DNA of 12,588 bases from positions 1 through 12,588 of the IMG/VR virus record IMGVR_UViG_2713896773_000018; one strand, given 5' to 3'. Source of the DNA: a virus (Duplodnaviria > Heunggongvirae > Uroviricota > Caudoviricetes). This document shows, piece by piece, positions 2,617 to 7,004 of this stretch. Each line of letters opens with the position of its first letter. Position 1 is the stretch's first letter. The notes under the pieces are model-generated. The model did no database searches and was not told the origin of the DNA. It saw only the letters and a list, made by a program, of their open reading frames with translations. The position numbers were made by a program, and so were the translations under genes.

Positions 2617-3159
2617 TCATATAACCCCCAGCATCGATGTAACCATCGTCATCAGCGGTCCTACCTGCTCCGGCATGAGGCGAAACAATGACGCTATGCC
2701 CTCGCTTACCTCCTTCATTTTCTGGTGCTCAGGCGCGTTCAGGAGAACGGCTTGCTTTGCTTCTGAACATTCCTTCATGGCAGATGCGATCAGCGACATG
2801 GTGTCGTTCTGCGGCGCCAGGCGTGTACGAAACTCAACAGGAAGAACAGCCATGATTGCCGGGGTCAGTTCTCTAACGTTCTCGCGGTACTGATCGGAGT
2901 CGAAGCGGTTATCCAGAAAGCGAAAAAGTTTCTGGCGCGCCCTGCTGATGTCTTCTGGGAAGCTGATGGCGGTACCGCCCTGCTCCCGGTATTCGTTGAT
3001 GATCAGCGCTGACACTACGTCCTGATTGTCCAGGGACGACGACCATGCACGGACCGCATCGCGGATTTTGTCGTGACCTGGCTCCGCCTTAGGTTGAGCG
3101 CGGTTTATCATCGCTCCCGGGTGTATTCCGGTATTGTGTTGATACGCAAGTGAATGCAT
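2617..3159 (-). CDS. CII-position regulatory protein, YdaT / CP76-type (180 aa)
   Basis: ATG at 3157-3159 with AAGGGA RBS. Lies between cro and O where lambda has cII, but is twice the size of CII. Segments IINEYREQGG... and RELTPAIMAVLPVEFRTRL resemble Rac prophage YdaT as I recall it. Family assignment is from memory and unverified. Confidence 0.5.
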   Translation of the reverse strand: MHSLAYQHNTGIHPGAMINRAQPKAEPGHDKIRDAVRAWSSSLDNQDVVSALIINEYREQGGTAISFPEDISRARQKLFRFLDNRFDSDQYRENVRELTPAIMAVLPVEFRTRLAPQNDTMSLIASAMKECSEAKQAVLLNAPEHQKMKEVSEGIASLFRLMPEQVGPLMTMVTSMLGVI

Positions 3160-3189
3160 TGCTTTCCCTTTCGTGGTTAGAGCCGCCGG

Positions 3190-3411
3190 TTAGGCGGCAA
3201 AGATACCTGGATATAGAACTTCGCGAGGAAGTCCGGTTACTTCTTCGTATTTACGCATTTTTGTTACTGGAAGGCTGCCACCTCGCTTTTTAAGCATATT
3301 GATGGCCTGAGGCGTTACGCCGACCTTTTCAGCAAGCACCTTTTGAGAGCCGCCCACTGCATTAATGGCTTTCTCAAGCGGGGTGCTGGCGTTGGATTTT
3401 TTGTTGATCAT
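3190..3411 (-). CDS. cro: Cro-like HTH regulator (73 aa)
   Basis: First gene divergent from the repressor. HTH segment QKVLAEKVGVTPQAINMLKKRGG. ATG at 3409-3411 with a GGAG RBS. Confidence 0.8.
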   Translation of the reverse strand: MINKKSNASTPLEKAINAVGGSQKVLAEKVGVTPQAINMLKKRGGSLPVTKMRKYEEVTGLPREVLYPGIFAA

Positions 3412-3432
3412 GTTTTGCTCCGCTCATGTGTA

Positions 3433-3506
3433 ATCAACACCATGTTAATTCATGGCGTGGATTAAATCAACATTATGGTGATGGAAAAAATCCACATGTT
3501 GTTTAC
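3433..3506. promoter_or_regulatory. OR-like operator cluster: three 17-bp sites of form ATC[AC]ACA-N3-TGnTnAn between cro and cI
   Basis: Site A 3433-3449 ATCAACA CCA TGTTAAT; site B 3466-3482 ATCAACA TTA TGGTGAT; site C 3490-3506 ATCCACA TGT TGTTTAC. The same half-site recurs in the OL region at 5458-5541. Confidence 0.65.
3442..3470 (-). promoter_or_regulatory. candidate PR promoter for cro (minus strand): -35 TTGATT (3465-3470), -10 TAACAT (3442-3447), 17-bp spacer
   Basis: Hexamers read on the minus strand; they overlap operator sites A and B as PR overlaps OR1/OR2 in lambda. The -10 is a weak match, so the exact hexamers are uncertain. Confidence 0.4.
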
Positions 3507-3528
3507 CATGCATGGAGCGGAGGGTTTT

Positions 3529-4248
3529 ATGAGCAGCATTTCTGAAAGAATTAAATTTTTACTGGCAAGGGAAGGCTTGAAGCAGCGGGATTTGGCTGAG
3601 GCTTTGTCGACTAGCCCACAGACCGTTAACAACTGGATAAAAAGAGACGCGTTAAGTCGTGAGGCGGCGCAACAAATATCTGAAAAATTCGGTTATTCTC
3701 TTGACTGGTTATTAAATGGAGAGGGTTCTCCAAAGAAGGATCTGGAGAGCAACATCCCGCCAGAGTCTGAGTGGGGAACTGTCGACGCTTGGGACAAAAA
3801 TACCCCCCTACCTGACGATGAGGTGGAAGTACCGTTTCTGAAGGATATCGAGTTTGCGTGTGGTGATGGACGAGTACACGATGAGGATCACAACGGTTTT
3901 AAATTGCGCTTTTCAAAAGCAACGCTCCGTCGAGTTGGAGCTAACACAGATGGGTCTGGCATCCTGTGTTTCCCTGCTACTGGCGACAGCATGGAACCTG
4001 TGATACCGGATGGTACGACTGTAGCCGTCGATACGAACAACAAACGCATAGTTGATGGGAAACTGTATGCCATTGGTCAGACAGATGGCGGGAATGGTCA
4101 ACTCAAGCGCATTAAACAGCTGTATCGTAAGCCAGGTGGGAAGCTGATCATCCGCAGTTACAACAACGACTCCTACCCAGACGAAGAGGCTGATATTGAT
4201 GATGTCGAGATAATTGGCCGTCTCTTCTGGTACTCGGTATTGCTGTAG
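3529..4248 (+). CDS. cI: CI-like prophage repressor (XRE-type HTH + S24 LexA-like autopeptidase), 239 aa
   Basis: N-terminal HTH (RDLAEALSTSPQTVNNWIKRD). C-terminal S24 signatures GDSMEP (catalytic Ser) and GQLKRIKQL (Lys). The ATG at 3529 has a GGAGCGGAGGG RBS; the upstream ATGs at 3475/3481 lie inside operator site B and lack an RBS. Confidence 0.9.
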   Translation: MSSISERIKFLLAREGLKQRDLAEALSTSPQTVNNWIKRDALSREAAQQISEKFGYSLDWLLNGEGSPKKDLESNIPPESEWGTVDAWDKNTPLPDDEVEVPFLKDIEFACGDGRVHDEDHNGFKLRFSKATLRRVGANTDGSGILCFPATGDSMEPVIPDGTTVAVDTNNKRIVDGKLYAIGQTDGGNGQLKRIKQLYRKPGGKLIIRSYNNDSYPDEEADIDDVEIIGRLFWYSVLL

Positions 4249-4294
4249 CGGTGGCCTGATGAGACGTTTTGGTGAAAGCATATAAGGACTGTTG

Positions 4295-5161
4295 ATGGAA
4301 AACACTGGCTTACACGATGTTAATTTTTCACTTAGATATGACGGTTTGGATGCTGAAAAGCATGAGATTGAACTTTCTTCGCTCGGTGAATCGCTAAAGG
4401 GATTTTCGAAGATATTAGCTACAGCTGGAACCTTCGCATTAACCCAAAAGTACTCGCGAAGCACCTCAACTCAAGAGGTTAAAATTTACGCTACCGAAGC
4501 TAGGGCCAATTGTTTTTCTCTTGATACTATCATGAATTTTATCAGTCAGTCTCAATTGTTCTCAGGGTCTGCGGGGGCTATACTTGGCGCATTAGTGCCT
4601 TATATCTTCGCTAAAAACTCGCAGAAGAAAGAGGAAATGAAATACCTAAAAGAAGCACTTGAGAAGGCAATTGAGGCCCTCGGAAATAAAGATAAAGATA
4701 CCATCTCAGGTCTAATCTCAGTGATTGACAAGATGGCTAGTGAGTTACGCCCATCAGTTAGACAGGCAGTTTCCCCCATCGGTACCACCTGTAATAAGAT
4801 AAGCGTCACACCGGGGAATGGTTTCAAGCCTGCTGTAATTGATGAGCAAGATAAAGCAGTAATAGACCAGTTGGACGACGACGAAGTTCTTGGCTTAAGG
4901 GAGTATCGAATCTTCCTTACTGAATTCGACGCTCACCGAATGACCGCTAAAGTCATTATAGAAGGTGATGATTCAGATAAGCGCATCTCAGCACAAATAA
5001 GCGATCCATCTGCTTCAAAGGCAGACAACCCGTATCTCATTTCACTTAGTCGTTTTCTGTCAACGGGTCTAAGTCATGAGTCAGCGGTAAAAGTAACTGC
5101 CAAAGCAGCAGTTAGAAAAGGGGCTATTAGTAAACTTTTCATAGTTGATATTGAGCTTTAA
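4295..5161 (+). CDS. hypothetical protein (288 aa) in the rex/immunity-moron position; one short hydrophobic stretch, no recognised domain
   Basis: ATG at 4295 with AAGGA RBS (the ORF track starts at a TTG at 4292). Immediately downstream of and co-oriented with cI, followed by a terminator. AT-rich: about 38% GC in a hand-counted 130-nt sample. Hydrophobic stretch [17 protein letters not shown], then a K/E-rich helical segment. Confidence 0.8.
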
Positions 5162-5164
5162 CAA

Positions 5165-5187
5165 CCGGCCACCGCGCCGGGTTTTTT
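5165..5187 (+). terminator. rho-independent terminator ending the cI operon
   Basis: CCGGC-CACCG-GCCGG stem-loop followed by TTTTTT, directly after the stop at 5159-5161. Confidence 0.7.
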
Positions 5188-5191
5188 GTGC

Positions 5192-5401
5192 CTACTTCAC
5201 AGCTTTACTACCCTTCCTGACTATCTCAGCTGCATCCCTGTTCACACCCTTACCTATCACGTTTCCCGTTTCCTTCCGGTACCGTTCCAGCTTGTCGATG
5301 ATGTTTTGCTGGGTCATAGGTAAATCTGCCAGTGACAACTCCATGACCGCCCGCCCCATGGCGTGAACCATCATGTTCACTCTTTCTTCATCCAAGTCCA
5401 T
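5192..5401 (-). CDS. hypothetical small protein (69 aa), convergent with the cI operon
   Basis: Strong RBS AAAGGAGTGGGTA before the ATG at 5399-5401. Its upstream region is the AT-rich operator-bearing segment 5402-5500. No family recognised. Confidence 0.6.
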   Translation of the reverse strand: MDLDEERVNMMVHAMGRAVMELSLADLPMTQQNIIDKLERYRKETGNVIGKGVNRDAAEIVRKGSKAVK

Positions 5402-5457
5402 TACCCACTCCTTTTTGATGTTTTTTTCAGCATATCACTTATGCCACCAAAAAATAA

Positions 5458-5542
5458 ATCAACATAAAAATCAACAGTAAACGATTAAATCAACAAAATA
5501 AATCCACAAGGTGTTGACCTACAAATCCACATGATGTTTAAT
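5458..5542 (+). promoter_or_regulatory. OL/PL-like region: operator half-site array plus candidate PL (-35 TTGACC 5514-5519, -10 TTTAAT 5537-5542, 17-bp spacer)
   Basis: ATCAACA at 5458, 5470 and 5489; full sites ATCCACA AGG TGTTGAC (5502-5518) and ATCCACA TGA TGTTTAA (5525-5541). The promoter hexamers sit inside these two sites, as in lambda OL1/OL2. Confidence 0.6.
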
Positions 5543-5588
5543 TACTCCATCGAAACGAAACATCGACAGCTGAGCGAAGTTAGCCAGC

Positions 5589-5619
5589 GGCGGACAGCAA
5601 GTCGCCTGCTTTTTAACAA
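5589..5619 (+). promoter_or_regulatory. candidate nutL-like antitermination site: hairpin (5589-5606) followed by boxA-like TGCTTTTTAACAA (5607-5619)
   Basis: TGCTTTTTAACAA differs at one position from the E. coli rrn boxA core TGCTCTTTAACAA as I recall it. It lies about 40-70 nt downstream of the predicted PL start, preceded by a GGCGG/UCGCC stem. Confidence 0.4.
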
Positions 5620-5843
5620 CATGCAAAGTCGGAACAGCACTCAGTAATCCTGTTTAGACCCCAACGTACAAATTCGGCGCAGCACCGGGCGCGATCCGGT
5701 CGGTGTGAGGCTACCCCCTCGCGAGAGCGATAAAGGCGTGGGAACGGGCAACACTGGCTGGATGAGAGGTGCGAAGCGCAAACAGATTTATTCCAGTCCA
5801 TTCGAAGTTGAGTGGGCTGGGCTGAATCACAAGAGGATTTTTT

Positions 5844-6056
5844 ATGACTCAGACATACATTCCGGCGTGTTTAAGAGACCTTCCTAAGAAGCGTCAGAAG
5901 CCACGCAAACAGGCGATTAAAGAAGCGCAAGTGGAAGTTCTGAATAAGGCAATCGCATCGATAAAAGACGATATGCGTGCGTTCAAAACAGAAGAGCAGC
6001 GTCGCGGTCATTACCAGGCGATCAGCACACTCTCACAGATTCGTGATGAGTTGTAG
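5844..6056 (+). CDS. small basic protein (70 aa), first gene of the PL operon (N position); function unassigned
   Basis: Strong RBS AAGAGGA with a 6-nt spacer. Basic N-terminal segment LPKKRQKPRKQAIK. No clear arginine-rich motif of the lambda N type, so an antiterminator role is positional inference only. Confidence 0.6.
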   Translation: MTQTYIPACLRDLPKKRQKPRKQAIKEAQVEVLNKAIASIKDDMRAFKTEEQRRGHYQAISTLSQIRDEL

Positions 6057-6079
6057 AAGCTGATAGATAAAGCATTTCT

Positions 6080-6097
6080 CCCGCATCAGCGGGTAAC
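6080..6097 (+). repeat. copy 1 of a 17-bp direct repeat CCGCATCAGCGGGTAAC (hairpin CCCGC-ATCA-GCGGG)
   Basis: Identical 17-mer at 6081-6097 and 6303-6319, each just upstream of a gene's RBS. Confidence 0.8.
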
Positions 6098-6113
6098 TAA
6101 GTGGAGAGTACGT

Positions 6114-6302
6114 ATGCACAAGTGTCAATTCTGTGGGTACTTTCTGGCATCTGAAGAGATGCAGAGAATATCTGTAAACATGGTTGGCAGGCCTTACAAC
6201 ATCTGCATTCCATGCTCAGAAAAGTACAAAAAGAAAGGCCTGTGGGATTCGGCAAAAAACGATATCGACTGGAAATCACTTCCATGCGTCGATGAGACAT
6301 AA
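6114..6302 (+). CDS. small zinc-ribbon-like protein (62 aa; CxxC...CxxC)
   Basis: RBS GGAGAG with a 5-nt spacer. Cys pairs CQFC and CIPC about 24 residues apart. AT-rich. Flanked by the 17-bp direct repeats. Confidence 0.6.
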   Translation: MHKCQFCGYFLASEEMQRISVNMVGRPYNICIPCSEKYKKKGLWDSAKNDIDWKSLPCVDET

Positions 6303-6319
6303 CCGCATCAGCGGGTAAC
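6303..6319 (+). repeat. copy 2 of the 17-bp direct repeat CCGCATCAGCGGGTAAC
   Basis: Exact match to 6081-6097; begins one nucleotide after the stop of the 6114-6302 gene. Confidence 0.8.
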
Positions 6320-6335
6320 GACAGAGGGTAAGTCA

Positions 6336-7004
6336 ATGATTCGTCTTAACAACGAAATTAAAAATCAGCTATGCCATAACCTGCTTCTCGCATCCCCATT
6401 GTTTGAGAAAGCGAAAGCTGCGGTTAATGAGAGGGCGAAAATTGTTGAAGAAATTCGACAGGCATTGCTCAAGCAGGAAAACACTAGCGATGAGCAAATA
6501 ACTAAGGCTCGGGAAGATTTCAAAGATAACTCCTTCATCAAGATGCAGGTCGGCGCTAAAACTGCAACTTTAAAGGTCATTATTAATGGTGAGTATCACG
6601 AATTAGCCAGGAACGGTTTGGATCATCGCTATCGCCACCGTGGAAAACATATTGGTAAGCACGATCTTGAAAGCGACCTGTTCTTCGGAGCTTCCTTCGC
6701 GCCTGTAATTGATTCGGGTTTCGTTCCTGAAAGTTACAGCACGCTGAAGAAAGTTGGAAAATTACACGACCGACTCACTGAATCGACGGTAACCATCAAC
6801 GTTCTTTACGATGAAGTTGATGCCTTCCAATTGCAGGTTAAAGGTGCTCTAACCAAAGTCTCAACTGTTAAAAAACTGGCTGAGATGTGGCCTGAGGCAG
6901 TGCCATATTTGCCTGAGGTGGAACGCCGTGAAGCGACCAGCACCGCACTTGCCATTCCCGTTGAAACGCTAAACGCCCTTTGCGGCATACCAAAGAATGA
7001 ATGA
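6336..7004 (+). CDS. hypothetical protein (222 aa), AT-rich accessory gene in the ral/sieB-equivalent position
   Basis: RBS GAGGG. A long ORF with no internal stops in AT-rich DNA, followed by a strong terminator. No family recognised. Confidence 0.8.
   Translation: MIRLNNEIKNQLCHNLLLASPLFEKAKAAVNERAKIVEEIRQALLKQENTSDEQITKAREDFKDNSFIKMQVGAKTATLKVIINGEYHELARNGLDHRYRHRGKHIGKHDLESDLFFGASFAPVIDSGFVPESYSTLKKVGKLHDRLTESTVTINVLYDEVDAFQLQVKGALTKVSTVKKLAEMWPEAVPYLPEVERREATSTALAIPVETLNALCGIPKNE

Follow-up and report, generated by a model that had tools for sequence, protein, structure and literature searches.

The stretch of DNA analyzed here, IMG/VR record IMGVR_UViG_2713896773_000018 (12,588 nucleotides (nt), hereafter the window), covers the early/immunity region of a lambdoid prophage of the phi80 type, and the element under study is a small open reading frame (ORF) of 69 amino acids (aa) on its minus strand, at positions 5192-5401. 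The ORF lies where the initial annotation of the window had placed it, between the terminator of the cI operon and the left operator region (OL) with its promoter pL. The terminator is a GC hairpin, CCGGCCACCGCGCCGG, at 5165-5190, with its T-run on the plus strand; it ends the cI-40A operon behind the 289-aa gene 40A, and OL occupies 5457-5542, with the leftward early operon beyond. To our knowledge, lambda has no gene at this position. In kind, the small gene is an accessory gene of prophages whose product belongs, as a divergent member, to a known family of small proteins.

Positions 5140-5625 of the window are 100% identical to phage phi80 (JX871397), with divergence past 5625, and the layout of the immunity region was taken from the phi80 annotation mapped onto the window. 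The ORF list confirms the 69-aa coding sequence, which begins with ATG. Its ribosome-binding site had been described as near-ideal, and is indeed a strong Shine-Dalgarno sequence, AAGGAG, at 5413-5408 on the minus strand, 6 nt ahead of the ATG and kept in relatives. The upstream segment 5402-5500 is AT-rich, as had been noted, with 27% GC versus 51% for the whole window. The promoter proposed to fire in the opposite direction agrees with the pL of the phi80 GenBank annotation, which fires on the plus strand from a -35 at 5514-5519 and a -10 at 5537-5542.

Conservation and annotation history of the small gene

All 81 copies of the small ORF that were compared are intact and start with ATG, and none is disrupted. 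The median ratio of nonsynonymous to synonymous substitution rates (dN/dS) is 0.082 across 1374 pairs from these 81 copies, and the variable sites are distributed over codon positions 1, 2 and 3 as 29, 22 and 60: the gene is under purifying selection. Its product matches PHROG 3975, a family with no assigned function, with an E-value of 7.1e-35 (residues 2-65 against profile positions 5-68 of 68). In a search covering 5.8 billion proteins, 490 homologs were retrieved, from the Enterobacteriaceae Escherichia, Enterobacter, Citrobacter and Kluyvera. The full HMMER scan gave 51 clusters at 50% identity, whose members are stand-alone proteins of 50-100 aa with a single exception, a 1312-aa repeat protein (P0158) among the family representatives, which was rejected as a low-complexity artifact. 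The small ORF is almost certainly a genuine gene.

The same ORF is present in phi80 (JX871397), intact and identical, yet it is unannotated in that reference record. Elsewhere it is already listed as a hypothetical protein, in RefSeq (WP_000362427, from DH10B) as well as in phages HK639 and HK225. The exact 69-aa protein is found on at least 1000 contigs, and the phi80dlacZdeltaM15 remnants in DH5alpha, DH10B and NEB10-beta carry the exact locus. The 1988 phi80 sequence X13065 (2195-3300) is about 5% different from the 2012 genome in this region, and the differences shorten both the small ORF (57 versus 69 aa) and gene 40A (209 versus 289 aa). Sequencing errors are the probable source of these differences and would have shaped the historical annotation, and truncation in X13065 is the probable explanation for the small ORF never having been named. 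Literature searches on the RefSeq accession, locus tag and PHROG identifier of the small gene found nothing, and searches on M3-RNA/phi80 and on HK639/HK225 found nothing relevant; as far as could be found, the YmgB/AriR link and the cassette anatomy described below are new.

Relationship of the small protein to YmgB/AriR

The initial annotation had called for a sensitive homology search with the 69-aa protein, and a profile of its family does find YmgB/AriR. The profile was built from 27 sequences and searched with hmmsearch against all PDB sequences: it matched 2oxl_A (YmgB/AriR) with an E-value of 7e-5 over 51 residues (profile positions 14-64 against chain residues 9-59), and the next match had an E-value of 0.24. 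Alignment to AriR with hhalign gave a probability of 72.7% and an E-value of 3e-5, with 30% identity over 50 columns; the AriR sequence used agrees with the 2oxl alignment. AlphaFold2, supplied with the family alignment, produced a confident three-helix model (predicted local distance difference test 94.3, predicted template modeling score 0.81), and this predicted fold can be superposed on the crystal structure of YmgB (PDB 2OXL). In the hhalign alignment, YmgB R74 corresponds to R55, within a common helix-3 motif, R-x-x-x-E-I-V. The small protein is very probably a divergent YmgB/AriR homolog. Searches of NCBIfam and PADLOC with the 69-aa protein yielded nothing usable, and Foldseek found no match among viral structures (BFVD) at E≤0.001.

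Previous work showed that YmgB binds the TGS-helical region of SpoT and pushes SpoT towards synthesis of guanosine tetraphosphate (ppGpp), and that with the R74G substitution both SpoT binding and ppGpp accumulation are lost, whereas Rcs activation is unaffected (PMC10704370). Separately, YmgB activates the Rcs phosphorelay, with colanic acid up and curli down via RprA, and in both activities the abundance of YmgB is the signal (PMC10704370; PMC3509220).

Predicted promoter, leader and hairpin of the cassette

We aligned 67 distinct upstream sequences from phages of many immunity types. The sequence from a conserved A/T tract (GATTTATTTTTT on the gene strand; 5459-5449, minus) to the ATG is common to the immunity types, whereas the sequence further upstream varies by operator type; the tract marks the upstream edge of the cassette. 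Inside this edge, conservation points to a predicted extended -10 element on the minus strand at 5437-5429 (TGaTATGCT, read in the window as TGATATGCT), with its TG at 5437-5436 and its hexamer at 5434-5429, which would place the transcription start near 5422. The pattern TG-n-TA---T is essentially invariant, the extended -10 consensus being TGnTAYGCT: all 67 sequences have TG at -15/-14, 59 have TAYRCT and 64 have an A/T-rich discriminator.

The sigma-S -10 consensus is KCTAYRCTTAA (Weber 2005, as quoted in PMC5650638). A perfect 11/11 match to it (GCTACGCTTAA or GCTATGCTTAA) is found in 19 of the 67 upstream sequences, C at -13 is present in 26, and the window's GATATGCTGAA matches at 9/11 positions. 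No acceptable -35 lies 16-18 nt from the -10 in the window; TTGATT was considered as a -35 and rejected, as its spacing to the -10 is 21-22 nt. From these sequence features we infer the small-gene promoter, its sigma factor and timing, and a possible sigma-S preference.

At the other end, nearly all of 41 distinct downstream sequences have a GC hairpin some 5-15 nt past the stop codon. The hairpin in the window is a good plus-strand terminator of cI-40A transcription; read on the minus strand, it comes 11 nt after the stop of the small gene and has a 5-bp stem and a poor U-tract, UUGUU. Even a homolog with 35% identity has the A/T tract, a TGATATACT element and the hairpin. The cassette would comprise the A/T tract, an extended -10 with sigma-S-like features and without a usable -35, a short A-rich leader with a strong ribosome-binding site, an ORF of 65-69 aa, and a GC hairpin that doubles as terminator for the convergent cI operon. 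The promoter-like element, the leader and the hairpin are kept while operator DNA changes between immunity types, and it is likely that the cassette is autonomous, with its own promoter.

Genomic slot, neighbors and presence/absence

The genomic context was surveyed in 80 IMG/VR loci (viral contigs) that carry the small gene. In every one of them the gene sits between an opposed repressor operon and a divergent early-left operon. The repressors themselves range from 96% identity to the cI of the window down to undetectable by tblastn; six of these "undetectable" types were checked, and the convergent ORF still encodes helix-turn-helix and Peptidase_S24 domains. Between the small gene and cI, only about 6 of the 80 loci have 40A as cargo; the others have DUF1828 proteins, HK97 gp48/49-like genes, three unknown genes or BstA_C, or no cargo at all, so that the small gene faces cI directly. 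The first gene past pL varies as well: phi80 N, a 70-aa protein, an N_peptide protein or, in HK639, the put RNA. A member with 35% identity occupies the same slot in a lambda/P22-type region that has a true Phage_CII gene.

CobraSix and KO-TP1 have the pL leader and a YdaS/YdaT-type switch in common with these phages, but in them cI leads straight to OL and the small gene is missing. Conversely, family members are found at other positions: one with 42% identity is at the far end of a Pantoea prophage, adjoining tail-fiber genes and dinI, and one with 34% identity (P0171) is chromosomal, on a non-phage contig (1-4240), downstream of two GAF-GGDEF-EAL genes. The absence in relatives, the other positions and the varied cargo indicate that the switch can do without the small gene, that the gene has no fixed link to 40A and that it behaves as a mobile accessory unit. 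It is a self-contained accessory cassette ("moron") of phi80-type prophages. An independent moron had been the fallback in the initial annotation, and of the roles suggested there it fits best.

A candidate connector to host signaling

The 69-aa product is a three-helix protein of the YmgB/AriR fold and, by analogy with YmgB, would most likely act as a small stoichiometric connector, probably as a dimer. Made from its own promoter, possibly favored in stationary phase, it would bind a host signaling protein, either the TGS-helical region of SpoT or a component of the Rcs phosphorelay, or both, and binding would shift the stress physiology of phage-carrying cells (ppGpp level, capsule and curli programme). 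An accessory cassette that encodes a YmgB-like connector is our overall best explanation of the locus, with a probability of roughly 0.55. The mechanism of host-signaling connection is a more tentative proposal, drawn from that analogy, from which we also infer the target protein and the physiological effect.

Several observations weigh against this explanation. No Pfam model reaches threshold with the window protein, and PF10798 (YmgB/AriR) is touched weakly, by 2 of the 27 family members (E about 0.007), below its gathering score. The family has conserved features that YmgB is without (GNVIGKG, K51, A57, A58 and R62), and GNVIGKG/K51/A57/A58, its most conserved stretch, has no YmgB counterpart. 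R55 is kept in the phage core group and replaced in several distant members. Because YmgB lacks the GNVIGKG stretch and R55 is not invariant, the binding partner may be another protein than SpoT or Rcs. A simple sigma-70 consensus scan of 5402-5520 returned zero minus-strand promoters, which is explained by the lack of an acceptable -35. Read from the minus strand, the phi80 hairpin makes a weak terminator (z-score 0.35). Finally, the gene keeps its place beside OL across many immunity types, which could instead point to a role in the switch of the phage itself.

Operator half-sites and repressor control

The three ATCAACA half-sites reported in the AT-rich segment are present at exactly 5458, 5470 and 5489. 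The word occurs 11 times in the window where 1.8 copies are expected, a count that 0 of 200 shuffles reach. We built a half-site matrix from five dyad operators (ten halves), and it recovers all five, with scores of 19.7-23.3; among these, OL2 (5501-5519) and OL1 (5524-5542), the annotated phi80 dyads that overlap pL, score 19.9 and 22.0. No 19-bp dyad in 5402-5500 scores above background. The half-sites identified there by the matrix, all on the plus strand, are AATCAACAT at 5457-5465, AATCAACAG at 5469-5477 and AATCAACAA at 5488-5496. They have the same orientation and form direct repeats without an inverted partner, which makes for an odd feature of the phi80 OL: where a third dyad might stand, it has a series of directly repeated consensus half-sites. 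The one at 5457-5465 is the joint-best half-site in the window and the other two are also high-scoring. The 20-bp "OL3" of JX871397 corresponds to two of the three, with 5457-5465 as its proximal half and 5469-5477 as its second part; that at 5488-5496 has no operator annotation in JX871397. The 92-bp O-L region of X13065 takes in all three.

Relative to a start near 5422, the half-sites would be at about -35 to -43, -47 to -55 and -66 to -74, where they touch neither the -10 nor the spacer of the predicted small-gene promoter. The edge of the proximal half-site is 22 nt from the -10 hexamer, compared with 20 nt between phi80 OR2 and the -10 of the repressor promoter PRM, and CI bound there could hinder or help RNA polymerase. 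In other immunity types, where the operator words common to OL and OR differ, the nearest such word ends 43-57 nt upstream of the -10; with operators this much further upstream, occlusion by repressor is not a conserved feature of the cassette. The initial annotation had proposed a second repressor-controlled divergent promoter at this place. The promoter half of that proposal finds some support, in that a conserved promoter-like element points towards cI, but no dyad covers the core promoter, the half-sites belong to the already annotated phi80 OL region, and repressor control is unproven. In our reading, the small-gene promoter may be basically repressor-independent, with modulation by CI possible in phi80-immunity phages.

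These half-sites bear directly on an alternative role for the gene, as a CI-controlled component of the phi80-type lysis-lysogeny circuit. According to this alternative, a second promoter divergent from pL is repressed, or activated in the manner of PRM, by repressor on the OL3 half-site array, and the small protein acts on the phage decision, for example on CI, on the YdaT-type CII or on a host protease. The three half-sites do not change across 14 distinct phi80-immunity relatives, although their spacers do, the proximal one is as good as any in the window, and the 22-nt gap comes near the geometry of class-II activation at a predicted promoter that has no -35, as is often the case for PRM-type activated promoters. 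A dyad operator is nevertheless absent from 5402-5500, and the same cassette, from A/T tract to hairpin, is found in phages whose operators are unrelated and more distant. Similarly, the slot beside OL is kept across many immunity types, but in CobraSix and KO-TP1 a switch of this type operates in the absence of the gene, family members also occur outside immunity regions, and the homology points to a host-signaling connector and not to a known switch protein. We consider a role in the circuit doubtful. Less probable still is a combination of the two, in which a YmgB-type connector that taps SpoT/ppGpp and/or Rcs would be made from a sigma-S-type promoter edged by the OL3 array and tuned by repressor occupancy, possibly through PRM-like activation. 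Such an arrangement would tie the stress state of the host to prophage immunity and the stringent response, and would also operate in cloning strains of the DH5alpha/DH10B type. A role like that of lambda CIII (phi80 has no annotated cIII) was dropped, since there is neither similarity nor positional correspondence.

Other half-sites occur inside the cI operon: an isolated ATCAACA at 4290-4296 (minus) overlaps the start of gene 40A, and a weak dyad-like site at 4307-4325 scores 9.5 and has one good half, AATTAACAT. They could be due to chance or could form a weak repressor site.

The product of gene 40A, described as 288 aa in the initial annotation, had been suggested there as a partner of the small protein. 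A functional partnership of this kind, with the small protein as antidote, regulator or second subunit of the DUF7946/DUF7947 protein, would suit two adjacent, convergent genes that have one hairpin in common, particularly as 40A weakly matches the PADLOC candidate defense family PDC-S42 (E=1e-5). It is already contradicted by the context survey, however, because the neighbor in all but about 6 of 80 loci is something else (DUF1828, BstA_C, HK97 gp48/49-like or three unknown genes, or cI itself), and we judge it highly improbable. A chance ORF, or a non-coding function such as an antisense transcript against the cI operon, is hardly credible: the gene is unannotated in the phi80 reference genome and the weak minus-strand hairpin makes read-through antisense to 40A and cI conceivable, but dN/dS is 0.08, third-position variation dominates, zero copies are disrupted, the ribosome-binding site is kept in relatives, the confident fold matches a solved structure, and an Rfam search of the window at E≤0.1 gave no match.

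Layout of the remaining immunity region

In the phi80 annotation mapped onto the window, the cro-like gene 30 is at 3190-3411 (minus), the right operators OR1-3 at 3432-3507, cI at 3538-4248 (plus) and gene 40A at 4292-5161 (plus), the last with DUF7946 and DUF7947 by domain search (PHROG 5147). The cI of the window is the same as phi80 cI (1849-2559 of the compared locus) across the DNA-binding domain and linker, and differs in its last ~100 residues (S24 domain), including a 5-residue insertion. As the operators are identical, the window has the same immunity specificity, with a mosaic cleavage/oligomerization domain in its cI. Gene 40A also matches NCBIfam LAPAL_fam, under the cut-off, and may be a lysogen-expressed defense gene in the rexAB position. 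In 3100-6100 there are just two sigma-70-like consensus promoters, both antisense within 40A (4526-4565, minus), and they probably reflect chance (2 versus a shuffle mean of 4.4).

On the other side of the small gene, the pL leader at 5543-5600 (...CCATCGAAACGAAACATCGACAGCTGAGCGAAGTTAGCCAGCGGCG...) is near-invariant across most sampled immunity types, though the adjoining operators differ. A hairpin with a T-run lies within this leader at 5589-5606, directly before the annotated boxA. Identity to phi80 ends at about 5625, in the nutL region. Where phi80 has N, the window has a 70-aa protein (5844-6056; PHROG 5305) without a Pfam family, a 62-aa zinc-ribbon-like ORF (6114-6302) and an Nmad5-domain protein (6336-7004). 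With 5625-7004 differing from phi80, the window is a mosaic relative and not phi80 itself.

Implications of a YmgB-like prophage gene

Phi80 is a classical lambdoid phage, yet the small gene is missing from its reference annotation, and the corresponding PHROG is without an assigned function. A YmgB-like identity turns the gene into a testable hypothesis, namely a prophage product that modulates SpoT-dependent ppGpp or Rcs. Lambdoid lysis-lysogeny decisions are also known to be influenced by ppGpp. If the hypothesis is true, modulation of ppGpp or Rcs would matter for the fitness of lysogens, for superinfection and capsule, and for antibiotic tolerance.

Comparison with known systems

The predicted small-gene promoter and its proximal half-site recall PRM and OR2 of lambda and phi80: in both arrangements the -35 is weak and a repressor site ends ~20-22 nt upstream of the -10 hexamer. 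The small gene differs in having a half-site array without a dyad and a spacing that is off by 2 bp, and its geometry, predicted from sequence alone, is missing in other immunity types.

The closest counterparts in annotated phages are the hypothetical proteins HK639_46 and HK225_042, homologs with 86% and 46% identity that have the same position and orientation. HK639 differs in its repressor, its cargo and its put-type antitermination, while HK225 has phi80 immunity, as does the window, but other cargo.

Like lambda rexAB and other cargo between cI and OL, the small gene occupies a terminator-flanked accessory slot between the repressor gene and OL/pL, and is present or absent among otherwise related phages. 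Unlike these, it is read towards cI from its own predicted promoter and is not cotranscribed with cI, it does not belong to a recognised defense family, and it stays constant while the co-oriented cargo alongside varies.

The comparison with YmgB/AriR itself is one of distant but significant profile similarity. Identity is ~25-30%, under Pfam thresholds; the phage protein is without the ~24-residue N-terminal extension of YmgB, and the phage family has a GNVIGKG segment that opens helix 3. The phage gene is monocistronic and lies in an immunity region, while ymgB is part of the BluR-controlled ycgZ-ymgABC operon. Both proteins are small, have no enzymatic motif and are enterobacterial in distribution, and both have the helix-3 R-x-x-x-E-I-V with the Arg (R74/R55) that YmgB needs for SpoT binding (PMC10704370). 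The likeness extends to genomic setting: the distant member P0171 lies beside GGDEF-EAL genes, just as ymgB of E. coli K-12 lies beside bluF, which encodes an EAL protein.
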